A stretch of DNA of 45,711 nucleotides from Candidatus Parcubacteria bacterium. GTDB lineage: Bacteria > Patescibacteriota > Minisyncoccia > Phycocordibacterales > UBA12088. The DNA lies in contig RFKD01000016.1 of the NCBI GenBank assembly GCA_003694545.1, positions 1 through 45,711 of the forward strand, in the 5' to 3' direction. The translations under genes were made by a program, and so were the position numbers. This document shows, piece by piece, positions 1,655 through 44,431 of the stretch. The notes beneath the pieces are model-generated. The model had not been told where the DNA came from and searched no databases. It was given only the letters and a program-made list of their open reading frames with translations. Every line of letters starts with the position of its first letter. The first letter of the stretch is position 1.

Positions 1655-4677
<3,023 letters not shown>

Positions 4678-4782
4678 CCGTGCGGCTTGAATGCCGCATA
4701 GGTGTGTTGTTGTCTTGGTGATACGAGGTTGGTGAAGTGTTTCTTGGGTGAGGAGAAAAAGTTTCGTGTCGTCTCGCGTAAG

Positions 4783-4889
4783 TTGGCGGCTTGGCGCGGT
4801 GGGTACACCCGATCCCATGCCGAACTCGGTCGTTAAGCACCGTCGCTGCGATGGTACTCCCGCAAGGGGGGAGAGTAGCAAGCCGCCAA
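4783..4889 (+). rRNA. rrf: 5S ribosomal RNA
   Basis: Contains the CCCGATCCCATGCCGAACTCGG core. The terminal helix extends into a perfect 19-bp stem (4772-4790 with 4882-4900). Confidence 0.85.
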
Positions 4890-4905
4890 CTTACGCGAGA
4901 AGAAC

Positions 4906-4993: not shown

Positions 4994-5797
4994 ATGCTTT
5001 CTTGGTCTCGGCGTCACCAACTCGCGTACGCTTCGGGCGTAGCCGCCGTCATTGCGCTACCGTTTGTGTGGTGGGGTATTCTGTGGTATCTCACCATTCC
5101 CGAGACGTGCACCGACGGCAACCAAAATCAGGATGAGCAGGGTGTGGATTGTGGCGGCAGTTGTCCGTTGGCGTGTGCGTTTGAGGTCGCCCCGTATACT
5201 CTGCAATGGACGCGCGCCGTTCGGGTTGCCCCGGGCCGCTACCATGTTGTCGCGTATTTTGAAAATAGCAACCGCGCTCGTTATGCGCGCGACATTCCCT
5301 ATGAAATCACTCTCTACGACAAAGACAACCAAATCATCGCGAAGCGGCGGGGCAGTTTTGTCCTAACGCCCCAGCCAATAGTTGTCGTGCTCCACACGAA
5401 TATCGACACGGGAAAATCTGTCGCGGCGAGGGCGGTTTTCACCTATGTGCGTCCTGAGCGTTGGTACCAATATTTCAATGAGTACCTCTTGCCGGAAGTG
5501 AGCGGCGAGATCATTGCGACGAATTCGCTGCGTCCTCGAGCGGAAGCAATCCTCGAAAACCCGCATCCTGACCCGCTCACCTCAATCACGGCTGTTGGGT
5601 TGGTGTATGACGCCGGGGGTAACCTTGTGGGGGCGTCGCAAACGCAAGTAGATCGGCTTGAGCCCCGGGAACGCAAACGCATCGTCTTCACCTGGCCTAC
5701 GGCGTGGGAAGGGCAGGGGGTGAGGCTTGAGGTGGTGGTCTCAAGGCCATCGCTATTTATTCCCCTCGCGCACATTGCCCCAAGCGGCCGTCAGTAG
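4994..5797 (+). CDS. membrane-anchored hypothetical protein
   Basis: The track ORF 4748..5797 overlaps the 5S and its terminator, so I trimmed it to the internal ATG at 4994 (MLSWSRRHQ...). It has an N-terminal hydrophobic helix and a Cys-rich segment. Confidence 0.6.
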   Translation: MLSWSRRHQLAYASGVAAVIALPFVWWGILWYLTIPETCTDGNQNQDEQGVDCGGSCPLACAFEVAPYTLQWTRAVRVAPGRYHVVAYFENSNRARYARDIPYEITLYDKDNQIIAKRRGSFVLTPQPIVVVLHTNIDTGKSVAARAVFTYVRPERWYQYFNEYLLPEVSGEIIATNSLRPRAEAILENPHPDPLTSITAVGLVYDAGGNLVGASQTQVDRLEPRERKRIVFTWPTAWEGQGVRLEVVVSRPSLFIPLAHIAPSGRQ

Positions 5798-10346: not shown

Positions 10347-10453
10347 ACCACACAGGAGTATACCCTCTTGCCGTCCACGCGGCTATGATGCTAGGGTGTT
10401 TCTTGTACTGCCGCGCGAAAACGAGGCGTTTTTGTGTTAGAGTGCTTTCATCT

Positions 10454-11845
10454 ATGGGCATTCGTGCTCGAGAGCTTCTGTTGCTCCTGGTAAGCGATGT
10501 TGTGGTGCTGGGTGCCGCCCTTTGGCTTTCGCTTGCCGCGCGCCACCTAGCGCTCCCTTCGGGGGAGATGTATCTCGCGCACGCGCAGCTGTTTGCAGTT
10601 GTGGCGCTTGTGTGGTTGAGCATTTTTTGGCTCTTTGGTTTGTACGATAAGCATACCACAGCGTTTCTTCAAGAAGTGTTTCGGCGTCTTGTGGGCGCGC
10701 TTGTGGTGGGCGCAGCGGCGGCGGTGGTGCTTTTTTTTCTCCTACCTACAGACCTGGCGCCTAAAACCATTCTTGCGCTCTACACGCTCTTTGTGGGCGC
10801 CGGGGTGGCGGTTTCTCGGTTTGCGCTGTTGCGGCTGACAACTCGCCGCAAAAAGGCGCGTGCTGTCGTTGTGGGGGAAGGGCAAGCCGTAGAAGCGCTT
10901 GCCGAGGAGGTGCGCGCGAATCCGTTTCGATATCCGTTTATGGTTGTTGCTGTGGTGTCGCCGAAAGAGGCACGACGAGAGCTCCCCGCGTTATCCCACG
11001 AAGGCGCCATAGAGTGGCTTATCGTTCAAACAGACCATCCGAGCGCCGCGCAAGAAATTGGGCCTCTTTTGGTGTGGGCAACGGAGCATGGGGCGCGCCC
11101 CGTGTCGCTTCTTGCTATGTACGAGCACATATTTGACCGCGTGCCTCTCACGACAGCATACCCCATTCTGCTTGACCATTTACTCCGCTCATCGGCTCGC
11201 TGGTATGAGCCTATCAAGCGGGCTTTCGACATTGTGTTTGCGCTGGTAGCACTTGCGGTAGTGGTGTTGTTGATCCCGCTTGTGTGGCTCGCGTACCGCC
11301 TCGAAGGCGTGCAAGGGGGTGTGTGGTATATCCATGGTCGGGTAGGAAAGGGGATGCGCCCCTTTCGCGCGGTGAAATTTCGCACGCTCACGCGTTTAGA
11401 CCCAGAAGGGCAATTATTAGACGAGGCTCCTAATCCGCCCACCAGGGTTGGAAAGGTGCTGCGCGCCCTTTCGCTTGATGAACTGCCGCAGGCCATTAAT
11501 GTGCTCAAAGGGGAAATGTCGTTCATTGGGCCGCGCGCCGACGCGCTGGGCGTTGCTAAGCGACTGGTTGCTGAACTGCCGCTTTATCCGTTGCGCTACT
11601 TGGTGCAGCCGGGCATCACCGGTTGGGCACAGACGCACCAGCGGTATCCGGAAGGAAAAATAAGCCCGCAAAATGTTGAGGAAAGCGCTGAGCGTCTCGC
11701 CTACGATCTCCACTACATCGCGCACTATGGCTGGTGGGTTGACGGGGTGGTGCTGTTTCGGACCGTGCGCACGCTTCTTGAGCGAGTGATCACCTTTCTC
11801 TTGCTTGTGGGAAAGGGAGTGCCTCGCCCAAAGAAAAATGTGTGA
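10454..11845 (+). CDS. polyprenyl-phosphate sugar-1-phosphate transferase (bacterial sugar transferase, WbaP/EpsL-like)
   Basis: The C-terminal domain carries KRAFDIVFALVAL...FRAVKFRTL...DELPQAINVLKGEMSFIGPRA. Multiple N-terminal TM helices. Start trimmed to ATG 10454. Confidence 0.85.
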   Translation: MGIRARELLLLLVSDVVVLGAALWLSLAARHLALPSGEMYLAHAQLFAVVALVWLSIFWLFGLYDKHTTAFLQEVFRRLVGALVVGAAAAVVLFFLLPTDLAPKTILALYTLFVGAGVAVSRFALLRLTTRRKKARAVVVGEGQAVEALAEEVRANPFRYPFMVVAVVSPKEARRELPALSHEGAIEWLIVQTDHPSAAQEIGPLLVWATEHGARPVSLLAMYEHIFDRVPLTTAYPILLDHLLRSSARWYEPIKRAFDIVFALVALAVVVLLIPLVWLAYRLEGVQGGVWYIHGRVGKGMRPFRAVKFRTLTRLDPEGQLLDEAPNPPTRVGKVLRALSLDELPQAINVLKGEMSFIGPRADALGVAKRLVAELPLYPLRYLVQPGITGWAQTHQRYPEGKISPQNVEESAERLAYDLHYIAHYGWWVDGVVLFRTVRTLLERVITFLLLVGKGVPRPKKNV

Positions 11846-14472: not shown

Positions 14473-14501
14473 TTGCAAAGCGGAGGTTGCTGCGCTATAG
14501 T
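14473..14501 (+). promoter_or_regulatory. promoter TTGCAA-17 nt-TATAGT, 8 nt upstream of the secD ATG
   Basis: TTGCAA at 14473-14478 and TATAGT at 14496-14501, with the ATG at 14510 and no SD. Confidence 0.5.
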
Positions 14502-14509
14502 GCACGCGT

Positions 14510-15820
14510 ATGTGGCGAACGCTTTCGGCGGTGGCACTCCTTGGGTTTGTGGGAGCGCTGGGATGGCTTGTCTGGTGGAATGCCTCGGGCAAAGGATCCT
14601 TTCCTTTTCGCCTCGGGCTTGATCTTGCCGGCGGGGTGGAGCTGAGCTACGCCGCGGACATCTCAGAGGTGCCCCCGGGCGAAATTCGCGACGCAATGCG
14701 CTCATTGCGCGATGTTCTCGAACGGCGCGTGAACCTCTTTGGGGTTGCCGAACCGGTCGTGCGCGTGGAGCGCGCTTCCGTGGTTGCAGAGGATAGCGAT
14801 GTGTGGCGGGTGCGCGTTGAACTACCGGGCGTTACGGATGTGGAAGAAGCGATCCGACGTATTGGCCAGACGCCGCTTTTGGAGTTCAAACTCGTGGGGG
14901 GAGCGGCAGCAACTTCCGCCACGGGAACCCCGCAGGTTGTGTACGAGCCTACCGGGCTAACGGGTCGTTTTCTCGAGCAAGCGCAGCTTGGCTTTAGCGG
15001 CGGCAACGCTGGCCCTTCTGAGCCGGTTATTTTCCTCACTTTCAACAGTGAAGGCGCGGAATTGTTTTACGAGATTACGAAGAACAATGTCGGTCGCCAG
15101 CTTGCCGTGTTTCTCGATGGGGAACTCATTACAGATCCGATCATTCGCGAGCCTATTGCCGGAGGGAAAGCGCAAATAAGCGGCAGTTTCGCCGTGCAAG
15201 AAGCCCGAGAAATCGCGCGTAATCTCAATTTTGGGGCTCTACCGGTGCCGATTACGCTTATTGGCACCCAACAGGTAGGTCCTACTCTAGGAAAAGAAGC
15301 GCTTGCGGCGGGCGTGCGGGCGTTGGCTGTCGCGCTCGCGCTTGTTGTCTTCTTTATGGTTGCGTGGTATCGCCTGCCGGGAATGGTCGCGGTTGTCGGC
15401 TTGCTGGGGTACGGCGTTGTGATGCTCGTGCTCTTTCAGTTCATTCCCGTTGTGCTTACTGCCGCTGGCATTGCTGGCTTTATTCTCTCCCTTGGAATGG
15501 CTGTTGACGCGAACGTGCTAGTGTTTGAGCGCCTCAAAGAAGAGCTCGCCCATGGCAAACCGCTTTCCGAGGCTGTTGAGAACGCCTTTGCGCGGGCGTG
15601 GAGCGCCGTGCGTGACGGCAACGTCACAACGCTGTTCACCGCAGGGGTGCTGTACTGGCTGGGAACTTCGTTCGTGGAAGGATTTGCCCTCGTGCTTGCA
15701 CTTGGCGTGTTGGTGTCAATGGCTTCCGCCATGATAGGGGGGCGTGTCTTCCTGCGCGCTCTGGCGGCGATTCCTGCATTGGGTGAACGGCGCGCGTTAT
15801 GGACTTCTCCTGGCATATGA
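14510..15820 (+). CDS. secD: protein translocase subunit SecD
   Basis: 436 aa with a periplasmic domain and six C-terminal TM helices. Contains FGALPVPI and VLTAAGIAGFILSLGMAVDANVLVFERLKEE. Confidence 0.85.
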   Translation: MWRTLSAVALLGFVGALGWLVWWNASGKGSFPFRLGLDLAGGVELSYAADISEVPPGEIRDAMRSLRDVLERRVNLFGVAEPVVRVERASVVAEDSDVWRVRVELPGVTDVEEAIRRIGQTPLLEFKLVGGAAATSATGTPQVVYEPTGLTGRFLEQAQLGFSGGNAGPSEPVIFLTFNSEGAELFYEITKNNVGRQLAVFLDGELITDPIIREPIAGGKAQISGSFAVQEAREIARNLNFGALPVPITLIGTQQVGPTLGKEALAAGVRALAVALALVVFFMVAWYRLPGMVAVVGLLGYGVVMLVLFQFIPVVLTAAGIAGFILSLGMAVDANVLVFERLKEELAHGKPLSEAVENAFARAWSAVRDGNVTTLFTAGVLYWLGTSFVEGFALVLALGVLVSMASAMIGGRVFLRALAAIPALGERRALWTSPGI

Positions 15821-18808: not shown

Positions 18809-19151
18809 GCGCAGAACTGGAGAAGAATCAATTTTTTCGGGAGGGAGTGCGCCTCAGGATGGGGCTCCCCTTTCACTGACTCCCCCGTGACAGCAAACGA
18901 CGCAGCCGGATTTACTTGTTGGGGCCGTGTTGTATTGCTTGTGGGTTGATTATATCGCCAATGGGAAGGCAACGGCGCGGGCTCGGAGAAACCTGTGGAC
19001 AGCTTATCTTGCATAATTATAACGAGCGGAGCTGCTCTCTGAGCCAGAAGGGTTTGGTTGCGGCTCGGCAGGTGCGTATTCTGGCCGCGGCTTCATAGCG
19101 TAAACGCTTGGGTGGAGAACAAACCCACATAGATATGATAGTATACCGCTG

Positions 19152-19772
19152 ATGGATTTCAGTGTGCGTTCCGCGTTGTTTTTGCGGGGGGAGGTTATCA
19201 GCCTCCATCCGTTGATAAGCGCCGATATTCCCTACTATGTGCGGTGGCTGAACGATCCGGAGGTGCGGCGGTACTTCCCGTTCCATATCGCTCCTGTTTC
19301 AGAGGCGCAAGCTGCTCATTGGGTGGAAGCAGGGGCGCTCGTGGGCATCCACCAGCAGACCTTCACCATCACATCGCCTGCCGCGGAGCCGGTTGGAGCG
19401 ATTGGGTTTCGCGAGATTTCGTATCGCGATCGTCGCGCCTTGGTTGATATCGTGTTTGCGGTGGAATATCTTCACCAGACTTCATACTATACCGACGCGC
19501 TCCACCTTATTGCTTCCTACGCGTTTGACAACGAGTCGCTCAATAAGCTGGTGTTTGAGGTTCCGGACGACGGTGCGCCAGCTTTGGTTGAGGCGCTACG
19601 GGCAGTCGGGGGCTACCAAGAGGCGCACCTAGCGTCCCATATCTTTTTGCGCGGCGTTCTGCGCGATATGCATCTTTGGGCGTTGTTTGCCGACGCGTGG
19701 CGAAGCCAACGCGACAGGGGAGGCCCACAGAAAACAACAGCGCCGCCAGCCCCGCCGCGGCCTTCTTCTTAG
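19152..19772 (+). CDS. GNAT family N-acetyltransferase (RimJ/RimL-like)
   Basis: LRGEVISLHPLISADIPYYVRWLNDPEVRRY is typical of Acetyltransf_3. TGaTAGTAT lies 7 nt upstream of the ATG. Confidence 0.7.
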   Translation: MDFSVRSALFLRGEVISLHPLISADIPYYVRWLNDPEVRRYFPFHIAPVSEAQAAHWVEAGALVGIHQQTFTITSPAAEPVGAIGFREISYRDRRALVDIVFAVEYLHQTSYYTDALHLIASYAFDNESLNKLVFEVPDDGAPALVEALRAVGGYQEAHLASHIFLRGVLRDMHLWALFADAWRSQRDRGGPQKTTAPPAPPRPSS

Positions 19773-19787
19773 CGCGAGCTTAATCGG

Positions 19788-20525
19788 CTAGCGGAGCGCC
19801 GTGTGCTCTGCGCCCAAGAGCGTTCCTTCAAAAGGCATTCCGCGCACAGCGGCTTCCAGTGAACGAAGATTTTTCCCGTTGAGGATAGCAACTCGCATCC
19901 CAGCCTTCTGTGCTTCGCGCGAAGCAGTTGGATCAAATGGGGTGGAAAGTCCCGGATTCCACTGAGGGGGAATGAGAGCAAGATAATCGTTCCAACGCAA
20001 GGACGCAAACGCTCGCGCGGTGTCGTGTGTGTTGGGATCGTGTTCATACACATACGGGATGTTGCTCGCGTTGACGACGATGTCCGCCCCCGCAAGCCGC
20101 GCGAGGCGCACCGCAACGGCGTCGGACGATTGCCCTGGCTGTTGTCCGCCGGCAACCAACAGGCGGTGCTCTCGGATGTCTTTTACGGTGACGCGGGTTT
20201 TTCCTATAAGAGATCCGGCGTTTTCTCCCAAAAGCGCGACGAGGAACGCGGCGTTGAGGTGGGTGGCGTAAATGCCGATCCAATCGAGTGCGTCAGCATT
20301 TTGGACCCCGAGGGCTCGGGCCTCTTCTTGATACCAGCGGGCGGCGTAACCCCCACCTGCCACGATGATACAGCGGAATCCCTGATCCGAAAGGCGCAGG
20401 AAAAACTTCGCGATCCGCTCAAGGTAGTCTTGGTCAAGTTTGGAGGTAGGAGCAAGAAGCGACCCCCCGAGAGAAACAACGGCCCACGAACCACTCATCT
20501 TATAGAGGCTTCGTGAGCCAGCCAT
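19788..20525 (-). CDS. pyrH: amino-acid kinase family protein, archaeal-type UMP kinase-like
   Basis: VVSLGGSLL, IIVAGGGYAARWY and GGQQPGQSSDAVAVRLA motifs. About 245 aa. TGcTATGAT lies 8 nt upstream of the ATG. Confidence 0.65.
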   Translation of the reverse strand: MAGSRSLYKMSGSWAVVSLGGSLLAPTSKLDQDYLERIAKFFLRLSDQGFRCIIVAGGGYAARWYQEEARALGVQNADALDWIGIYATHLNAAFLVALLGENAGSLIGKTRVTVKDIREHRLLVAGGQQPGQSSDAVAVRLARLAGADIVVNASNIPYVYEHDPNTHDTARAFASLRWNDYLALIPPQWNPGLSTPFDPTASREAQKAGMRVAILNGKNLRSLEAAVRGMPFEGTLLGAEHTALR

Positions 20526-20553
20526 TAGTGAGCATCATAGCATCTTGCGGCTC

Positions 20554-20582
20554 TTGACACAACACCTAGGCGTGCGTATACT
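20554..20582 (+). promoter_or_regulatory. sigma70-type promoter of the 16S unit (TTGACA-17 nt-TATACT)
   Basis: TTGACA at 20554-20559 and TATACT at 20577-20582. Confidence 0.6.
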
Positions 20583-20590
20583 GGCCCCTG

Positions 20591-20635
20591 CTTTCCTGCT
20601 AGAAAGCAGGAAAGTTTGGTTTGCTCTTTGAAATC
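20591..20635 (+). promoter_or_regulatory. 16S leader boxB-like hairpin plus boxA-like TGCTCTTTGAAATC
   Basis: Hairpin ctttcctgct/agcaggaaag (20591-20614) followed by tttggtt, then tgctctttgaaatc at 20622-20635. Confidence 0.45.
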
Positions 20636-20723
20636 CGCATACCACTCAACAAGCGAGAACCCCCTTTGGTTTTCCAAAGGAAAGTCGCCCTGAAAAGGGC
20701 GCGCGCACGATGAGAAAAGGATC

Positions 20724-22210
<1,487 letters not shown>

Positions 22211-22413
22211 CATTGGAGGTGCTGCGGGCAACCGCGGTGCGATGTGGTCGATTATGTGTGCCTCGATCGAGCACGCATAAGGGGAAGTGTGCACCCCCCT
22301 AAACACACTCGGCCGATGCGGGAGATGCCGACACCCGCTTCATCGATGGCGTAGGGAAAGCTCGCTCGAGTGGTATGCGGATTTGAAGGAGGAAGCCACA
22401 ACCAAACACGCCA

Positions 22414-22458
22414 CCAAACACATCAGCGCACCCCAATGGGGCGCGCTGATGTGTTTGG
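22414..22458 (+). terminator. very stable hairpin between the 16S trailer and tRNA-Ile (terminator or processing element)
   Basis: ccaaacacatcagcgc(a)cccc-aat-gggg(c)gcgctgatgtgtttgg forms about 20 bp. The downstream T content is only modest. Confidence 0.45.
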
Positions 22459-22470
22459 TTGTGGACTGGT

Positions 22471-22499
22471 TTGGCGAACAAGCGCGTATGTGCTACACT
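22471..22499 (+). promoter_or_regulatory. promoter TTGGCG-17 nt-(TGc)TACACT just upstream of tRNA-Ile
   Basis: TTGGCG at 22471-22476 and TACACT at 22494-22499. The tRNA starts at 22510. Confidence 0.45.
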
Positions 22500-22509
22500 T
22501 TGCCGTGGC

Positions 22510-22581
22510 GCGGGCGTAGTTCAGTGGTAGAACGCCGCTCTGATAAAGCGGAGGTTGATGGTTCGATTCCATCCGCCCGCA
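22510..22581 (+). tRNA. tRNA-Ile (anticodon GAU)
   Basis: Cloverleaf: acceptor GCGGGCG/CGCCCGC, D arm GTTC-AGTGGTA-GAAC, anticodon arm CCGCT-CTGATAA-AGCGG, T arm GATGG-TTCGATT-CCATC. CCA is not encoded. Confidence 0.9.
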
Positions 22582-22827
22582 CAGCAGGTGAGTAGCTCTT
22601 GGTGGTGTCGGTACACCTTTGGTGCGTTAATCGACGCGTATGAAGCGGGGTTCACCTTCCACCTCAGGCTTACCACGTGCTTGGGAAAGCCAAACTGATC
22701 GAGAAGGGAAGCAAGGCCCCGGCACCTTCCTCCTTGCGGTTGCAACAGAGGGAAGCGATCTTCGTCTGAATCGGCGTAACGCCGAAATCGCCAAGGCTCG
22801 TTAGGTGCCGAAAAAGAGGTTTTTCAG

Positions 22828-29661: not shown

Positions 29662-29732
29662 ACTGCCGTGTATGCTATCACAAGGCGACCTATCACAAAA
29701 GAGCTTGGTTGGCGTGGTATACTCAGCAGTAT

Positions 29733-30365
29733 ATGGCGCAGGGAAGCGTTCCTCTTCTTCTTGGAGCTGCGGTGGTTGTGGTGGCGCTGGGGTTTGCCGG
29801 CGGGGTATTGTGGGCAACATCCAAAAACACGCCCCCTTCAGACAACGAGCGCATTGCCGAGTTTTACGCAACGGAAGTTGCCGTGCACAAAAGCGCGCAC
29901 TCCGTGCGCAAGGCGATTATGCAAGGGGACGACTCTTTTGTGCTGGTGGATCTGCGCTCTCCGCAAGAGTACGAGCGGGAACACATTGTCGGCGCGGTAA
30001 ACATTCCCGCCTATCGCGACCCGGATACTTCCGCCTATGGGGAAGTGGAGCGTATCGTGCGCGAGTTCCGGAAGTTGCAAGCCGAACACCCCGGCAAGGA
30101 CATTATCGTGTACTGCTACAGCGCCGCGTGTATGACGGGGAGAAAAATCGGCGCGATGCTCGCGCAACACGGCATTTTCGTGAAGCACCTCACCGTCGGT
30201 TGGCAAGAGTGGCGCTATTTCTGGAACTTATGGAATCACGACGGGGAAACACCGGTTGATCTCACTTGGTTTGTCGCCTCCGGCAAGGAACCAGGCCGCT
30301 ACGAAGGGCCGCGGTTGCCGATGGTGGGCGGCTGCAGCGCGGAGGGTAACGATTTTGGCTGCTAG
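29733..30365 (+). CDS. rhodanese-like domain protein with an N-terminal TM anchor
   Basis: FVLVDLRSPQEYEREHIVGAVNIP and IIVYCYSAACMTGRK active-site-like loop. Trimmed to ATG 29733 because the upstream part of the track ORF overlaps tRNA-Leu. Confidence 0.65.
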   Translation: MAQGSVPLLLGAAVVVVALGFAGGVLWATSKNTPPSDNERIAEFYATEVAVHKSAHSVRKAIMQGDDSFVLVDLRSPQEYEREHIVGAVNIPAYRDPDTSAYGEVERIVREFRKLQAEHPGKDIIVYCYSAACMTGRKIGAMLAQHGIFVKHLTVGWQEWRYFWNLWNHDGETPVDLTWFVASGKEPGRYEGPRLPMVGGCSAEGNDFGC

Positions 30366-33732: not shown

Positions 33733-34608
33733 CTAACTGAGGTGCTGCACGATGGCGCTGTGCCATTCTTGCAACCTCTGTGTTGCCGCCTGCGGGTCAA
33801 GAAGCGGTGCAGGTGCCTCCAAATAGCCGAGGAGGAGTTGTCGCACAACATCTCCTTGCCACTCATCAAGAAAATCGGCAACCCTTCGCAACTCCTTCAC
33901 GGTGTAGTGAGGAGGAATGAGGCGGCGCGTTTGTTCCCAGTGGTTGAAGAAAGTCTTGGTAAGCAGGAGGTTATGAGATTTTGCTTCCAATATCGCCTTT
34001 CCTTGCGGTTGTGTGAGGAGGGTGGGGAAAGCGACGAGCGCGGTAAGAAGGGCATACAACTGAGCTGTCTGCCGTGCTGGTCCACCTTGTATTTCAAACA
34101 CGACGTCCCCGGTATTTTCCCCAACACCGAAATGAGCGGCGCGAGAAGAAAGACAGATTCGCAGCAAAAAAGTATTGTCTTCTTCTGTCTGCTCTTCCTT
34201 TTCCTCTTCTCGCGCTCTATCTGAAATCTCCTTGTCCTCTACTTTAACCTCAAAAAATGTGGGATTAATGATGCCCCACGCGAGAAGGCGCCGACACATC
34301 TCTGGCTTTTGGGCGCAGATATTGAATAGAGTTTGAGTGAGGGGAAGGGGCTGGTTACTCTCTTGGATTTGGTCGATGAGGTGCGCAAAGAGTGTTTGCC
34401 CGCGATCCCAGGTGCACTCTTCTAGCTCGAATTCATCAATTGACGAGGAGTCACCAGTGGACGGGTTGTTTTGGCGCATAAGTGGTTCGCAGATGGCAAC
34501 CCACTGCTCCAACAAAAACACGGCCTGCTCAACGGGTTCTTCTGGGATACCCGCGATTTGCAGCCCGGAAGGTTTCGGCTTGCGCCCTCCTTCACCGAAA
34601 TGCGGCAT
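33733..34608 (-). CDS. hypothetical protein (A/T-richer orphan between murD and murC)
   Basis: 291-aa ORF with a central acidic stretch and no recognised domain. TGaTAGTATAAT lies just upstream of its ATG. Confidence 0.45.
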   Translation of the reverse strand: MPHFGEGGRKPKPSGLQIAGIPEEPVEQAVFLLEQWVAICEPLMRQNNPSTGDSSSIDEFELEECTWDRGQTLFAHLIDQIQESNQPLPLTQTLFNICAQKPEMCRRLLAWGIINPTFFEVKVEDKEISDRAREEEKEEQTEEDNTFLLRICLSSRAAHFGVGENTGDVVFEIQGGPARQTAQLYALLTALVAFPTLLTQPQGKAILEAKSHNLLLTKTFFNHWEQTRRLIPPHYTVKELRRVADFLDEWQGDVVRQLLLGYLEAPAPLLDPQAATQRLQEWHSAIVQHLS

Positions 34609-34753
34609 TGCAGATTATACTATCATAAAACCGGCAAGATGCTGAGCTGGGAGCGTATCATCGCGGTTTGTTGTTGGCCTCCGGTTGGAATTATGCACGG
34701 CGAGTAGCACGCGCTCCTTCCCTCGCGGTGAGGAAAAGAGTAAAGTGGTAGGT

Positions 34754-36112: not shown

Positions 36113-36207
36113 GCAAAAAGAGCCGCCGGGGGGACCGGCGGCTTATGTCGGACCTCGAGAGGCTCTACCCTCGGAGTGCCCCCATGGCGTGGGATCAGGG
36201 AGGCGTC
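36113..36207 (-). ncRNA. candidate small RNA Y1 (promoter TTGACT-17-TATCTT at 36239-36211; terminator 36142-36113)
   Basis: Minus-strand -35 and -10 boxes with 17-nt spacing. The predicted 5' end carries GCCUCCCU (36204-36197). Hairpin GCCGCCGG/CCGGCGGC is followed by a T-run on the minus strand. Confidence 0.3.
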
Positions 36208-36313
36208 TTTAAGATAATTCTTTTCTCAGAAGTAGTCAAATGTGGGCTGTGGACAGCGGAGGATTCTTTCTCTTGATTGATTGCAATCTACTTACCCAAA
36301 CCCAACCAATCAC

Positions 36314-36415
36314 AAAAAAGCCGCGGGCAAGGCCCGCGGCAAGCAAGTATAGGGAGGAAACGCCTCAAGTGTGGGAAGCACCCTGCCCTTACGAAGGGGA
36401 GGAGATGCGTCCCAA
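36314..36415 (-). ncRNA. candidate small RNA X1 (promoter TTGACG-15/17-TATAAGT at 36448-36420; terminator 36340-36314)
   Basis: Minus-strand promoter-like boxes. The 21-mer ACTTGAGGCGTTTCCTCCCTA (36370-36350) is identical to copy X2. Hairpin GCCGCGGG/CCCGCGGC is followed by TTTTTT. Confidence 0.3.
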
Positions 36416-36589
36416 ACTTAACTTATACCGTCTTAACGACTTCGTCAAGAGCCACTTTTTGTGTGGTTATTCTGTTTTGCAAAGTGTCTCTCTGTCTCTT
36501 TCTTCTAACTCGGATGCACGAATTTTTATGCTGTTCGCAAGCGAGATACGGCTGCTTCTCCTTGCATTGTTTAACGGCATTATTGCGCT

Positions 36590-36877
36590 ATGGGAACGCT
36601 TGCTGTTGTTGCAACACCACTTGGCAACTTGGAGGACATCACCTTACGCGCCCTGCGGATACTGCGCGAGGCGGACTTGGTTCTCGCGGAAGACACGCGC
36701 CGTGCGCGATCACTCCTCTCGGCGCTGGAGATACCCGCGCCGCGCCTGGCGCGCACGCTGGAGGATGCCGCAAAAAAACTCTCTGCGTATGGCCCCGACA
36801 GCGTCGTCATCACAATGGGAGCGGGCGAAGGCTACAAGGTTGCCCGCGCCCTGCGGGAAGGTAAGACGCAAAGCTGA
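36590..36877 (+). CDS. chimeric ORF: RsmI N-terminal 52-55 aa fused to MurC C-terminal about 43 aa
   Basis: An intact 95-codon ORF created by the duplication. It keeps the rsmI-type upstream region (CATTAT box 6 nt before the ATG). No frameshift or stop despite about 10% divergence. Confidence 0.4.
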
Positions 36878-36889
36878 CGCGTCTTATTT
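36862..36889 (+). terminator. hairpin overlapping the chimeric ORF stop (TAAGACGC/GCGTCTTA + TTT)
   Basis: 8-bp stem, 9-nt loop, then tttg. No equivalent hairpin follows the murC stop in unit A. Confidence 0.35.
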
Positions 36890-36906
36890 GCGACGAAGCG
36901 GCAAAC

Positions 36907-36990
36907 AAAAAAAGGACCGGCGGTGCGCAGGCATGCCGCCGGTCAAACTCCCGCCCCCGCGAGGGGGGCGGTGGGAGGGAGGCACCTTCA
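36907..36990 (-). ncRNA. candidate small RNA Y2 (promoter TTGACA-17-TATTAC at 37023-36995; terminator 36944-36907)
   Basis: Consensus -35 with 17-nt spacing. GCCUCCCUCCCA sits near the predicted 5' end (36983-36976 for GCCUCCCU). An internal 8-bp GC hairpin is followed by the terminator GACCGGCGG/CCGCCGGTC plus TTTTTTT. Confidence 0.3.
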
Positions 36991-37135
36991 TCTAGTAATA
37001 ATTCTTCTCTCAGGGCTTGTCAAGCACGGGTTGTGGACAACGCGGAGGAATTTTGCGGGCGCTTCCGCCGAATGTTGCGCGAGAGGCGGCGCGTAAATAA
37101 GATCAAGTACAACACCACTCTTTGACTCAATCATG

Positions 37136-37200
37136 AAAAAAGCCGCGGGCAGAGCCCGCGGCTAGTGGTAGGGAGGAAACGCCTCAAGTCGGGTGTTTCG
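37136..37200 (-). ncRNA. candidate small RNA X2 (promoter TTGACA-17-TATCAT at 37234-37206; terminator 37162-37136)
   Basis: Consensus -35 with 17-nt spacing. Carries the same 21-mer ACTTGAGGCGTTTCCTCCCTA (37089-37069) and the same GCCGCGGG/CCCGCGGC + TTTTTT terminator as X1. Confidence 0.3.
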
Positions 37201-37344
37201 ACACGATGATATACCTTTGTGATAACCTTGTCAAGAGGATCTCGTTTGCCAATATTGACGCTCCAAATCGCGCTCTGTACAGAAACTTTTTGTTGAAAAT
37301 ACGGACTGCTTGCTCCTTGCTTCGTTTAACGGCATTATTGCGCT

Positions 37345-38046
37345 ATGGGGACGCTTGCCCTTGTCGCAACGCCGATAGGCAACTTGGAGGACATCACCTT
37401 GCGCGCCGTGCGGGTATTGCGCGAGGCGGACTTGGTTCTCGCGGAAGACACGCGCCGCGCGCGTGCGCTCCTTTCGGCGCTCAAGATCCCCGCGCCGCGC
37501 CTTGCGCGCGCCGATGAAGCGGCGCTCGCGCGCGGGAGCGCGCAGCGTGAAGCGCTACGCGTGTTACGCGAAGGCGGGTTGGTCGCGTTTTTGACCGACG
37601 CGGGAACCCCGGGCGTTGCCGACCCCGGATGGCGCCTTGTTACAAGCGTTCTCGAAGCGGAACCTGAGGCGCGGCTTGAGGTTGTTCCGGGACCTTCCGC
37701 TTTGACGGCAGCGCTTGTGGCGGCGGATTTTCCCGTTGAGCGGTTTGTCTTTTTTGGCTACCCGCCGCGCAAAAAGGGGAGGGCAGGCTTTCTCGCGGAC
37801 ATCGCGCGCGAAACGAAGCCCGCCGTTTTCTTTGAAAGTTCACACCGCATCGCGCGCACGCTTGCCGAGCTCGCGCGCCTTGCCCCAGAGCGCCACGCCC
37901 TCTGGGCGCGGGAAATAACCAAGGCGCACGAACAATACCTGCGCGGGCCTTTGTGCGCGCTTGCCGAAGCGGTTGAGCGCGATGCTCAGCTCGCGCGCGG
38001 CGAACACACGCTCGTGCTTGCGGCCGCGCCCCCTCGCGCTCGTTAG
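37345..38046 (+). CDS. rsmI: 16S rRNA (cytidine1402-2'-O)-methyltransferase
   Basis: [50 protein letters not shown] and FYESSHR-like FFESSHRI motifs. 233 aa. Confidence 0.85.
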   Translation: MGTLALVATPIGNLEDITLRAVRVLREADLVLAEDTRRARALLSALKIPAPRLARADEAALARGSAQREALRVLREGGLVAFLTDAGTPGVADPGWRLVTSVLEAEPEARLEVVPGPSALTAALVAADFPVERFVFFGYPPRKKGRAGFLADIARETKPAVFFESSHRIARTLAELARLAPERHALWAREITKAHEQYLRGPLCALAEAVERDAQLARGEHTLVLAAAPPRAR

Positions 38047-39873: not shown

Positions 39874-39893
39874 TGTGCTACACTATCTGATGT

Positions 39894-41804
39894 ATGCCCC
39901 ACGAGCCGCGCTGGGAGGAAAACCCCGATTCGGTGGTGCTCATTGGCGAAACAACCGCCCGCGCGGCAGCGACACTCTTCGGGATCAAAGCCAAAGACCG
40001 CTTGCGCCACCTTTACGCCATTGGAAAAACCGGCATGGGTAAGTCAACCCTGTTGGAGAACCTTGCCATTCAAGACATTCGGCGAGGGGCGGGAATTACC
40101 TTTGTTGATCCGCATGGATCCTCCGCTGAGCACTTGTTGGATTTCATTCCCAAGGAGCGCGTGCGCGATGTTATCTACTTTGCGCCGTTTGACCTCGCCC
40201 ATCCCATCGCGTTCAATGTGCTGGAAAAGGTGGATCCCGACAAGCGGCACCTCATTGTTTCAAGCCTAATGGCGACCTTTGAAAAAATTTGGGTGGACGC
40301 GTGGTCTGCCCGTATGGCGTACATCCTCCAAAATACCCTGAGCGCCCTGTTAGAGTATCCGGGCGCGACGCTCTTGGGAGTCAATCGAATGTATGTCGAC
40401 AGTGAGTTTCGCAAGCATGTGGTGGAGCATATTACCGACCCCGCCGTCAAATCGTTTTGGAAAGACGAATACACGAAATACACCGACCGCTACGCTGCTG
40501 AAGCAACGCCGGCCATTCAAAACAAAATCGGCCAATTTGCTTCTAACGCGATGATCCGCAACATCGTCGGGCAGGAGCACACCTCCTTTGACTTGCGGCG
40601 CGTGATGGATGAGCGCAAAATTCTCATTGTCAACCTTTCCAAAGGGAGAATTGGAGAAGACAACGCGCGCCTTTTGGGCGCGATGTTGGTGACGAAGCTC
40701 TATCTGGCGGCAATGTCGCGCGCGGACACTTCGCCTCAGGAACTCGCGGCGCTTCCGCCGCACTATTTGTATGTTGACGAATTTCAATCGTTCGCCAACC
40801 GAACCTTTGCCGACATTCTCTCGGAAGCTCGCAAGTTTAAGCTCGCGCTCACGATAGCCCACCAATACATTGAACAAATGGAAGAAGAAATCCGCGCCGG
40901 CGTTTTTGGTAATGTCGGGACGATGATAACCTTCCGCGTCGGCGCGTACGACGCGGAAGTGCTTGAGCGCGAGTTTGGCCCCAAAATCACCGCCCAAGAC
41001 CTCGTCAACCTCGGCTTCGCGGAAATTTACATTCGCCTCATGGTGGACGGCATTACCTTACAACCTTTTTCCGCGCGGACGCTCCCGCCCTTCCCGCGGC
41101 CGCAAGAGAGCTACCGCGCGATGGCGCTTGCCGCGTCGCGCGCGCAGTGGTCGCGCGACCGCAAAGCTGTGGAAGAAGAAGTCTTGCGCTGGCACGTGCC
41201 GGTCGTGTCGGAAGCGACACAACTCAAGCGCGAACGCAAAGAGCTGCGCCGCCAACAGCGATTAAGCGACAATCAACAAAATGGTGCAACGCAAGGAAAA
41301 GGTGCGCGAACTGCCACGCAAAAAGAGAGCGCTTCTCAACCAAACGCCGAGGGCAAGCAGGAGGCGCAACCGTTTGATGACCTTGGCAGCGCGAATGCTT
41401 CTGGAGCCCAAGCACGGGCTGGCGCCTCACGCGATGCGCAATTCGCTTCCTCGTGGCAGTTGGGCGATATTCTTGCCGCCGTGCTTGCGCAAGAAGCGCA
41501 AAAAGGAAAAGAATCGCACGATCGTGCGGCCAGCGTGGACGAGAGGCACAAGCAGGAGGCTAAGGTAGAGAATGAAACACTGCGCGAGCTTCTCCTGCGT
41601 CTGCACCGTATAGAAACAAAGCTTGGGCAAGCGATCCCTTCGCGCAAGCAAGGAGGGAAGCAAGGCGGTGGGAAAGGGGAGCAGGGCGAGCAGGCCCCAC
41701 CGCAGGATCTTCAGCGCCTCCTTGCCGTGGAAGAAGACGCGGCGTCTGAACGCGATGCCAAATCTTATGCAGAGAATAAGCGTAGCGAGAAAGAGGCTTC
41801 CTAG
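39894..41804 (+). CDS. TraD/VirD4/HerA-like P-loop NTPase (type IV coupling-protein-like) with a low-complexity C-terminal tail
   Basis: Walker A IGKTGMGKSTLL, VDPHGS, Walker B HYLYVDEFQSF and ARKFKLALTIAHQYIEQM. The last about 200 aa are K/E/Q/A-rich. Confidence 0.6.
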   Translation: MPHEPRWEENPDSVVLIGETTARAAATLFGIKAKDRLRHLYAIGKTGMGKSTLLENLAIQDIRRGAGITFVDPHGSSAEHLLDFIPKERVRDVIYFAPFDLAHPIAFNVLEKVDPDKRHLIVSSLMATFEKIWVDAWSARMAYILQNTLSALLEYPGATLLGVNRMYVDSEFRKHVVEHITDPAVKSFWKDEYTKYTDRYAAEATPAIQNKIGQFASNAMIRNIVGQEHTSFDLRRVMDERKILIVNLSKGRIGEDNARLLGAMLVTKLYLAAMSRADTSPQELAALPPHYLYVDEFQSFANRTFADILSEARKFKLALTIAHQYIEQMEEEIRAGVFGNVGTMITFRVGAYDAEVLEREFGPKITAQDLVNLGFAEIYIRLMVDGITLQPFSARTLPPFPRPQESYRAMALAASRAQWSRDRKAVEEEVLRWHVPVVSEATQLKRERKELRRQQRLSDNQQNGATQGKGARTATQKESASQPNAEGKQEAQPFDDLGSANASGAQARAGASRDAQFASSWQLGDILAAVLAQEAQKGKESHDRAASVDERHKQEAKVENETLRELLLRLHRIETKLGQAIPSRKQGGKQGGGKGEQGEQAPPQDLQRLLAVEEDAASERDAKSYAENKRSEKEAS

Positions 41805-43467: not shown

Positions 43468-43486
43468 CCTGTGCTAGGATCGCCGT

Positions 43487-44431
43487 ATGACGCACCAATC
43501 GGCCGACGCCTTCCAACCTTCCTCTCCGGAAAGAGACGAGCCGCAACTGGCGGTTGTCACGGGCGGCGCGGGCTTTATTGGTTCGCACCTCATCAAGCGT
43601 CTGCTTGCCGAAGGTTGGCGCGTTATTTCGCTCGATAACTATTTCACCGGATCCGAAGAAAATCATCAACCGGGCGCCGAATACCGCCGCGGTCACACGA
43701 AAGACATCGCCAAACACATTCCCGAAATACCTCATATTATTTTTCATTTAGGTGAGTACGCGCGGGTCACGCCCTCCCTTGAGGAACCGTATCTCGTGTG
43801 GGAACACAACCTTACGGGGAGCGCGGCGGTTTTGGAGTGGGCACGCACGCGTTCACCGGCGCCTTTTGTGGTGTACGCCGCGTCTTCCACGAAATTTGCG
43901 CAGGGGGAGGAGGGGCGCTTTCTCACACCCTACACTTTTGCTAAAACAACGGTTGCCGACCTCGTTCAGGCGTATCAAAAATGGTTCAACCTTTCGGTTG
44001 CTGTTGTGTATTTCTACAATGTCTACGGGCCGGGCGAACCGGCAGACGAGCGTGGGACGCTGATCGCGCGATTGCTTGCGGCTCGGCGTGCTGGTAAACC
44101 ACTGCCGCTGCGCAAACCGGGGACGCAGCGGCGCCACTTTACCCATGTTGAAGACATCGTAGTCGGTCTTCTTACTATTGCTCACCAAAAGGCGGAAGGA
44201 GAATTTTCGCTTGGCGCTCCTTACGATGAGTACTCCATAGAAGAAATAGCTCGGATGATAGGAGGTCCTATTGTGTGGCTGGATCCTCTCCCTGGGGATC
44301 GTTCTTCCTCGCACCTTGACATATCGGCCGCGCAAGCACTCGGGTGGCAACCGCGGCAACATCTTGCTGACTATATCGCGCAAGAACTTCGCGCGATGGA
44401 ACAAGAAGCCCAACTATGCGTTGGTGGATGA
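43487..44431 (+). CDS. NAD-dependent epimerase/dehydratase (UDP-glucuronate decarboxylase-like)
   Basis: VVTGGAGFIGSHLIKRLLAEGWRVISLDNYFTGS. 314 aa. Confidence 0.8.
   Translation: MTHQSADAFQPSSPERDEPQLAVVTGGAGFIGSHLIKRLLAEGWRVISLDNYFTGSEENHQPGAEYRRGHTKDIAKHIPEIPHIIFHLGEYARVTPSLEEPYLVWEHNLTGSAAVLEWARTRSPAPFVVYAASSTKFAQGEEGRFLTPYTFAKTTVADLVQAYQKWFNLSVAVVYFYNVYGPGEPADERGTLIARLLAARRAGKPLPLRKPGTQRRHFTHVEDIVVGLLTIAHQKAEGEFSLGAPYDEYSIEEIARMIGGPIVWLDPLPGDRSSSHLDISAAQALGWQPRQHLADYIAQELRAMEQEAQLCVGG

Follow-up and report, generated by a model that had tools for sequence, protein, structure and literature searches.

A 16S rRNA gene without the anti-Shine-Dalgarno core in a GC-rich Paceibacteria contig, and promoter boxes placed directly ahead of start codons

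The DNA analyzed here, referred to as the window, comprises all 45,711 nt of contig RFKD01000016.1 (assembly GCA_003694545.1, Candidatus Parcubacteria bacterium), and the element under study is the 3' end of its 16S rRNA gene. The CCUCC core of the anti-Shine-Dalgarno (anti-SD) sequence has been lost from the 16S tail, as it has across the lineage. It is likely that Shine-Dalgarno (SD) pairing is not used, that initiation is leaderless, and that the tail is constrained by pairing within the precursor rRNA. Bacterial translation is usually described as being defined by SD:anti-SD pairing, and outside organelles and a few endosymbionts the anti-SD is rarely lost; the Parcubacteria are a large environmental group without it.

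The 16S gene scored 1401 bits against the Rfam bacterial small-subunit (SSU) rRNA model RF00177, for which the threshold is 50, and it covered the full model length (1-1533). Helix 45 (h45) aligned perfectly as CACGGCUAGG-GGAA-CCUGGUCGUG (22176-22199). Beyond it, the model forced AAAUGGUUCCACA against the consensus GGAUCACCUCCUUu with almost zero identities; a 16S 3' end annotated through model alignment is nominal only. The single-stranded tail GAUCACCUCCUUA was not present after h45, and on the plus strand no CCTCC occurred from 21723 to 22729, a range that takes in the tail, the whole 3' trailer, the spacer and tRNA-Ile. The original prediction, made from the sequence before this analysis, had described h45 as intact and ending at 22199 and CCTCC as missing as far as tRNA-Ile, and both statements were borne out. 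The covariance-model alignment that it had proposed is the one reported here, with a perfect h45 and an unmatched tail. Degenerate anti-SD candidates deeper in the trailer, CACCCCCCUAA (22293-22303) and GAUCGAGCAC (~22265), were rejected: both are located within hairpins, neither is conserved in that form, and neither shows a GAUCA-CCUCC arrangement.

The same tail was found in independent assemblies of the locus. A Joint Genome Institute (JGI) metagenome contig, Ga0181962_1038061, was identical to the window base for base over the fetched stretches. Relatives with a 16S tail were found via homologues of the HAD-family hydrolase gene downstream and included two NCBI metagenome-assembled genomes (MAGs) from another project than the window. 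In BPJK01000001 (L203), the 16S gene was 99.9% identical, and the tail and trailer were identical; in BPJJ01000004 (L201), the 16S gene was 98.7% identical, and the tail was the same except for G in place of A at position 1. The gene order was the same in both. L201 is a different species, with a neighbouring protein 82% identical, and the first 86 nt of its trailer carried 2 changes, of which U22238C converts a G.U pair of the first trailer hairpin to G-C. Judging from these copies, the missing CCUCC is not an assembly error. The alternatives raised in the original prediction (misassembly, inversion or a CCUCC farther downstream) were contradicted or found no support, assemblies of two species carrying the same tail. 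Further close relatives, L001-L003, were found via SecD homologues; their contigs stop just ahead of the 16S gene and provide no tail.

The 16S gene is presumably of the single-copy type. By its sequence relationships, the host is a GC-rich member of the class Paceibacteria (Parcubacteria/OD1) of the candidate phyla radiation (CPR), on a divergent branch. The best named relatives of SecD were Paceibacteria, Paceibacterota, Wolfebacteria and similar groups, those of the downstream HAD-family hydrolase were in Paceibacteria/Parcubacteria, and a neighbouring protein was 99% identical to a protein of a "Candidatus Parcubacteria bacterium" MAG. The h45 type of the window was also seen in named Paceibacterota, Nomurabacteria, Taylorbacteria and Zambryskibacteria MAGs. 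The GC content of the contig (~58%) is unusually high for Parcubacteria/Paceibacteria, and its 16S gene was at most ~83% identical to those of the other fetched loci, L201 and L203 aside.

GTDB species genomes were scanned with a 16S signature close to the 3' end that is neutral with respect to the tail (A1396U, CTTGTACTCACCGCCCGTCA). Among the matches listed, CCUCC was absent from 46 of 46 loci with the CAC-type h45 of the window (C1506; Paceibacterota, Nomura-, Taylor-, Zambryski-, Ryanbacteria and others), present in 22 of 24 with a CAT-type h45 (Magasanik-, Falkow-, Uhr- and Moranbacteria), and present in 20 of 20 with a TAA-type h45 (Campylobacterota). A scan of JGI metagenomes for the exact h45 of the window returned 75 loci; in the ~72 with a readable tail, CCUCC was found only in L177, and UCUCC was found in two. 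The non-redundant anti-SD-less tails (n = 83) gave the consensus GAWYAWUUCMAWUU, which looks like the canonical GAUCACCUCCUU with eroded cytosines. The window tail matches this consensus at positions 2-4 and 7-11 and differs from it at positions 1, 5 and 6 (A, G and G). Since it resembles the decayed tail common to the surrounding clade, the loss is ancient and lineage-wide rather than local damage. A comparison of 3' ends of related 16S genes, suggested in the original prediction, has thus been made and places the window within a clade without CCUCC.

Loss of the anti-SD in Parcubacteria is already published, and the window is a new, divergent and clean example of it; on this point the original prediction read the sequence correctly and missed the earlier publication. 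In the portion of Tsurumaki, Saito, Tomita and Kanai (2022; RNA 28:1041; PMC9297842) available here, the anti-SD motif is detected in just 48% of Parcubacteria, and its loss is described as otherwise rare and tied to lineages lacking uL1. The window belongs to the same phylum-level group and has no CCUCCU at its 16S 3' end, and the published pattern is reproduced by the absence of CCUCC from 46/46 genome loci (among the matches listed) and ~71/72 metagenome loci of the same h45 type. It differs from the published subgroup in its unusually high GC content and its divergence, as given above. That portion of the paper covers presence or absence of the motif and the uL1 link; a replacement tail, tail-trailer pairing and the mode of initiation are not described in it. 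What is added here is a tail that looks like a decayed relative of the canonical one and appears still tied to the trailer, together with genes that abut promoters. In the window, the L1 stalk of the 23S rRNA (H76-78, 3860-3990) is intact and near consensus and gives no support for loss of uL1. Era, the assembly GTPase that reads GAUCACCUCC, is mostly absent from these CPR classes.

Changes were also observed elsewhere in the 16S gene. A1396U (GUACUCACCGCCCGUCA, window 22073-22092) adjoins the decoding centre and is shared with many CPR lineages and with Campylobacterota (at least 120 matches). In the 530-loop pseudoknot (window ~21196-21240, 16S 500-536), both strands are changed with pairing kept, 505-507 UCC pairing with 524-526 GGA where GGC/GCC is usual. 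The 530 loop reads GGUCAGAC, the nearly universal form being GGUAAUAC. Of the loci fetched, L201 alone has both changes, and L099 has the pairing change only. The 530-loop changes would defeat 515F-type primers.

Gene starts were analyzed in the 38 genes of the single 45.7-kb window and in ~45 kb from close relatives. Use of SD pairing was examined for the 38 genes, with the gene calls stored for the identical JGI contig. SD-like 4-mers were counted 3-12 nt ahead of each start, and duplex energies were calculated over the preceding 20 nt, with the remaining ATGs of the window as controls. The mean duplex energy with the canonical anti-SD was -4.49 kcal/mol for the 38 starts and -4.49 kcal/mol for the control ATGs (p = 0.40). 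With the organism's own tail, the means were -5.21 and -4.98 kcal/mol (p = 0.20), and an extended tail gave p = 0.84. The enrichment 5-10 nt upstream of starts that marks SD-dependent initiation was not seen in the window. Identical scripts applied as a positive control to 45 kb of E. coli K-12 gave SD-like 4-mers at 70% versus 4.5% and duplex energies of -7.3 versus -3.8 kcal/mol (p = 3e-20); this signal is clear, and therefore ~40 genes suffice to detect SD use where it is present. GGAGG was not depleted inside genes, with 81 sense-strand copies compared to 62.7 +/- 7.8 in codon-order shuffles. The sense-strand copies in genes were mostly in codon phase 2, and GGAGG/CCTCC numbered 185 copies window-wide versus 92 expected.

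These upstream-region tests and the relatives together support the earlier view that a 16S rRNA without anti-SD is in keeping with SD-poor genes, and the equality of duplex energies with controls upholds the claim that most gene starts in the window lack an SD. It had further been proposed that the few SD-like strings lie too close to the ATG to function, which is only partly so, as the GAGG core of GAGGTGATgtATG before 11856 lies at the canonical spacing of 6 nt. The point that holds is that SD-like strings are about as frequent as chance, not their spacing. Across loci, distances between GGAG/GAGG and any ATG did not peak even where the tail is canonical, and the method is too noisy. Genes without SD motifs are also the general state in Bacteroidota. 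Bacteroidota keep CCUCC in their 16S rRNA, where it is functionally sequestered; the window differs in that the sequence itself is absent.

When the upstream regions were read by eye, -10 boxes were seen directly ahead of many ATGs, for example gcgcTATAGTgcacgcgtATG (secD), tgaTAGTATaccgctgATG, gtggTATACTcagcagtatATG, tgcTACACTatctgatgtATG and tgcTAGGATcgccgtATG; the original prediction had recognized the SD-poor starts and missed these boxes. TANNNT was present 4-13 nt ahead of 10/38 starts, compared to 6.2% of control ATGs (p = 8e-5). In a test free of gene calls, the distance was taken from each TGNTANNNT outside rRNA genes to the first downstream ATG opening an open reading frame (ORF) of at least 100 codons (Table 1), and in the window 10 of 39 motifs had such an ATG at 5-10 nt. 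The box and a spacing of 7-8 nt were kept in 2-3 species, with varying spacer sequence, for secD, the amino-acid kinase family gene, the acetyltransferase gene and the rhodanese gene. Bacterial transcription normally begins ~7 nt past the -10 hexamer, and therefore the leaders of such genes would be 0-4 nt, effectively leaderless. By the same measure, the distances show that a predicted leaderless-type architecture extends to other anti-SD-less Paceibacteria loci. Because the genome is GC rich and promoter boxes stand out from the background, the likely replacement for SD pairing, leaderless mRNAs, is visible in the DNA itself.

Table 1. Distance from -10 motifs to the first downstream ATG of a long ORF (number of motifs)
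Sample	Motifs	0-4 nt	5-10 nt	11-20 nt	21-40 nt
Window	39	0	10	2	3
Close relatives L201, L001, L002	36	0	7	2	1
93 other anti-SD-less loci	1157	7	63 (peak 6-7 nt)	13	49
25 loci with CCUCC	302	3	9	4	14
E. coli	67	1	1	1	5

The called starts were ATG in 33/38, in line with a preference for AUG. At the non-ATG call GTG 5066, an upstream in-frame ATG is preceded by a -10 box. More generally, three database starts (5066 GTG, 20498 and 32336) were each accompanied by an in-frame ATG 7-8 nt past an extended -10 box, at 4994, 20525 (-) and 32345, respectively; the database starts are probably wrong and these ATGs better. The JGI call of the amino-acid kinase family gene begins at 20498; its true start is probably ATG 20525 (-), and in L201 and L203 it is the 245-aa version that was called. 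Starts in such genomes will be set wrongly by gene finders that give credit for SD motifs, and at least three called starts here look wrong.

Leaderless translation is known from Mycobacterium, Streptomyces and Deinococcus, which the window resembles in having a -10 box a few nucleotides before AUG, a strong AUG preference and no need for an SD. These genera produce leaderless mRNAs while keeping a canonical anti-SD and using SD for many genes, whereas the lineage of the window has lost the anti-SD itself, and its mRNAs are predicted to be leaderless. Mammalian mitochondrial mRNAs are leaderless as well. Mammalian mitochondrial 12S rRNA is likewise an SSU rRNA without anti-SD (PMC10582724). 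The mammalian mitochondrial Era, ERAL1, must recognize h45 without an anti-SD; Era is mostly lost in CPR. Mitochondria differ in being organelles with ~13 mRNAs and a highly reduced rRNA, whereas the window has a full-length bacterial 16S rRNA on a contig with sigma-70-type promoter motifs. Literature linking leaderless translation to Parcubacteria, Patescibacteria or CPR was not found in a search of incomplete coverage. The loss of the anti-SD itself is known, and its link to a leaderless architecture is the fresher part of these results.

In the first trailer hairpin, CCACAU (22208-22213) pairs with AUGUGG (22242-22247) around GGAGGUG (22215-22221), as the original prediction had described; with its inner 9-bp GC-rich stem, the hairpin folds at -22.9 kcal/mol (z = -2.8; 3/200 shuffles as stable), and relatives have an analogous one. 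Across CPR loci, the order of hairpin, GUCGAU, second hairpin and processing-stem arm (Table 2) recurs. The processing stem proposed earlier is real but longer than had been thought, joining 20617-20661 with 22361-22398 and including 31-nt arms that are 87% complementary; its 5' arm holds GCUCUUUGAAA, which we take to be boxA-like. Relative to E. coli, the ~160 nt that separate h45 and the 3' arm are many. This distance had been called unusually long, but it falls within the range of CPR relatives (55-186 nt, medians ~113-128). Nearly all CPR 16S trailers (L007-L200), with or without a CCUCC tail, had GUCGA(U/C) downstream of their first hairpin, and a complementary AUCGAC was not found on reading the 16S 5' leader of the window.

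Pairing between tail and trailer was compared to shuffles. In loci with a canonical tail, the trailer has GGAG a few nucleotides past CCUCC (e.g., CACCUCCUUUCUGGAG), and the tail-trailer stem averaged 5.0 versus 3.5 +/- 0.23 bp in shuffles. With Watson-Crick pairs only and the 3' half of the tail, anti-SD-less loci gave a clear excess, with a mean of 4.04 versus 3.25 +/- 0.10 bp, and in them the trailer changes with the tail (UUCAA/UUGAA, UCCAA/UUGGA, CUCAA/UUGAG and GUCA/UGAC). When G.U pairs and loops of at least 3 nt were allowed, the AT-rich anti-SD-less group (4.23 versus 4.04 +/- 0.11) was not clearly above shuffles. As the sequences are related, this complementarity amounts to moderate evidence. 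Within the window, a stem of 5 bp, one of them G.U, can form between UUCCA (22206-22210) and UGGAG (22214-22218). The original prediction had noticed the GGAGG within the trailer hairpin and missed this role; from its position and complementarity, GGAGG is probably the trailer element with which the tail ordinarily pairs in the precursor and not an inverted anti-SD.

In another CPR lineage, Peribacteria/Peregrinibacteria loci (L008, L021, L025, L035, L072, L073, L090 and others) had an anti-SD core altered to GAACAUCUCCUU or GAACACUUCCUU, with ACCAGGGAG/ACCAGGGAA after each, which looks like tail-trailer co-variation.

In the mechanism proposed from these data, ribosomes of the organism would select start codons without recourse to SD:anti-SD pairing. 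In most transcription units, the first gene would have a sigma-70-type promoter with a -10 box, often TGNTANNNT, ending 5-10 nt before the ATG; the resulting mRNAs would carry leaders of 0-4 nt and be initiated via direct binding of the 5'-terminal AUG, and downstream genes would be reached through stop/start overlap or close coupling. Once SD pairing had become dispensable, the tail would have been free to drift, and its remaining constraint would lie in the pre-rRNA, as complementarity to the first trailer nucleotides (UUCCA with UGGAG). The tail would be followed there by a hairpin, GUCGAU, a second hairpin and an RNase III-type stem formed with the 5' leader. A tail that stays complementary to the trailer would explain the GGAGG just downstream of it. 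The finding provides a concrete hypothesis for metatranscriptomic mapping of transcription start sites and 3' ends.

A wider proposal can be entertained as a serious but still tentative possibility: that a whole major Paceibacteria clade gave up SD pairing with leaderless initiation as the default, that its tail is under pre-rRNA constraint only and co-varies with the trailer, and that the leaderless habit preceded the loss. The order of events is suggested because a weaker -10-to-ATG peak is also present in CPR loci that keep CCUCC, so that the leaderless habit may have come first and permitted the loss. In a bolder variant of this proposal, mature rRNA would retain the conserved trailer hairpin as a new 3' helix.

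Several observations count against leaderless, SD-independent initiation with a tail held by the trailer. SD-like 4-mers were found ahead of 8/38 starts (21%), compared to 10% of control ATGs, a marginal excess (p = 0.05) for which the bias of the gene caller toward SD-like motifs may account. When SD frequency was taken at the first ATG of long ORFs in 118 loci, the canonical-tail group was also at background (6%); as this positive control failed, nothing was drawn from the comparison across the clade. The leaderless state of the window's mRNAs is deduced from promoter-like motifs and their spacing only. The short tail hairpin is weak by itself (-3.5 kcal/mol, z = -0.5), and the shuffle test for tail-trailer stems overstates the independence of phylogenetically related sequences.

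Three other explanations were weighed. That the tail is an assembly artefact, an inversion or one non-functional copy, with the true or another 16S gene having a normal CCUCC tail, is scarcely credible and already largely refuted. The reverse complement of the hairpin at 22208-22247 does contain CACCUCC and would read GCACCUCCAAUG if inverted, and assemblies often break at rRNA regions, as the L001 and L003 contigs do just ahead of the 16S gene. However, an inversion would place CCUCC ~30 nt from h45 without yielding a canonical tail, and no assembly has that form. The JGI contig and both MAGs carry the same sequence, the substitutions in the distinct species agree with the structure, more than 90 related loci likewise have a similar tail without CCUCC, and the gene scores highly across the full SSU model. 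A replaced anti-SD is also very improbable. Here a new tail, such as UUCC or GGUUCCAC, would pair with another purine-rich motif upstream of starts; among 83 non-redundant relatives, 61-69 keep U7, U8 and C9 of the tail, and the residual UUCC could pair with GGAA. Against this, the upstream regions bound the organism's own or extended tail no better than control ATGs did, inspection of all 38 revealed -10 boxes as the sole recurrent motif, and many starts have a predicted leader too short for such a site. No replacement SD-like motif exists in these 38 upstream regions.

That mature 16S rRNA keeps one or more trailer hairpins as a structured extension in place of the anti-SD is unlikely, even though differences between the window and L201 amounted to 2.3% in the first 86 nt after h45 (2 positions), compared to 1.3% in the 16S gene, 9% over the remainder of the trailer and 25% in the spacer, and even though both hairpins are stable (z = -2.8 and -4.15) in a layout of hairpin, GUCGAU and hairpin that recurs in the clade. 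This conservation comes from two close sequences only and is weak (2/86 versus 7/75 differences), and across 83 relatives sequence conservation fades past ~14 nt of tail. Canonical-tail CPR loci have like trailer elements, including GUCGA, which fits processing signals.

Table 2. Coordinates of the features discussed (positions in the window)
Feature	Position	Strand	Basis
16S rRNA gene	20724..22212	+	Rfam RF00177, model 1-1533; nominal model-derived 3' end
Helix 45, intact, 10 bp + GGAA loop	22176..22199	+	cmscan alignment; fold
3' tail AAAUGGUUCCACAU replacing GAUCACCUCCUUA, no anti-SD	22200..22213	+	SSU alignment, motif search, relatives
First trailer hairpin, outer CCACAUU/GAUGUGG, inner GUGCUGCGG/CCGCGGUGC, holds UGGAGG	22208..22247	+	fold; relatives
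GUCGAU motif, conserved in CPR 16S trailers	22247..22252	+	after first hairpin in most fetched CPR loci
Second trailer hairpin	22252..22280	+	-13.9 kcal/mol, z = -4.15, 0/200 shuffles as stable
Processing stem 5' arm, holds boxA-like GCUCUUUGAAA	20617..20661	+	inverted repeat with 22361-22398; 100% conserved in L201
Processing stem 3' arm	22361..22398	+	inverted repeat; 22361-22384 100% conserved in L201
16S promoter: TTGACA, 17 nt, TATACT	20554..20582	+	consensus scan, 11/12 matches
tRNA-Ile (22510-22582) with own extended -10 box TGCTACACT (22491-22499)	22491..22582	+	ARAGORN, Rfam; motif scan
Sugar transferase gene: TGTTAGAGT, 10 nt, ATG	10435..10456	+	motif scan
secD: TATAGT, 8 nt, ATG	14496..14512	+	same box and 7-8 nt spacing in L201, L001; spacer sequence differs
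Acetyltransferase gene: TGATAGTAT, 7 nt, ATG	19136..19154	+	motif scan, relatives
Amino-acid kinase family gene (Pfam AA_kinase, annotation only): TGCTATGAT, 8 nt, ATG 20525	20523..20542	-	motif scan
Rhodanese gene: TGGTATACT, 9 nt, ATG	29715..29735	+	motif scan, relatives
Hypothetical gene: TGATAGTAT, 8 nt, ATG	34606..34625	-	motif scan
TrwB-like gene: TGCTACACT, 9 nt, ATG	39876..39896	+	motif scan
Hypothetical gene: TGCTAGGAT, 6 nt, ATG	43472..43489	+	motif scan

The rRNA genes of the window are unlinked: the 23S (1656-4678) and 5S (4782-4891) genes are followed 16 kb downstream on the same strand by the 16S gene, with ordinary protein genes between, and the 16S gene has a near-consensus promoter of its own. 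A near-perfect long hairpin (22396-22464) separates the processing stem from the tRNA-Ile promoter; its outer arms are 14 bp and its inner arms 23 bp, and no U-tract follows. Conservation between the window and L201 is lowest in this stretch of the spacer (74%, with a 12-nt deletion in L201). A tandem duplication of ~755 nt (36116-37509) covers the promoter and 5' part of a TP_methylase gene; the copies at 36558-36754 and 37313-37509 are 88% identical, and a 95-aa fragment ORF is left upstream of the 233-aa gene. In L001, whose SecD is 74% identical, the place taken by the 23S gene in the window has a LAGLIDADG homing-endonuclease ORF (1487-2047), suggestive of an rRNA intron; the 23S gene of the window has no such ORF.

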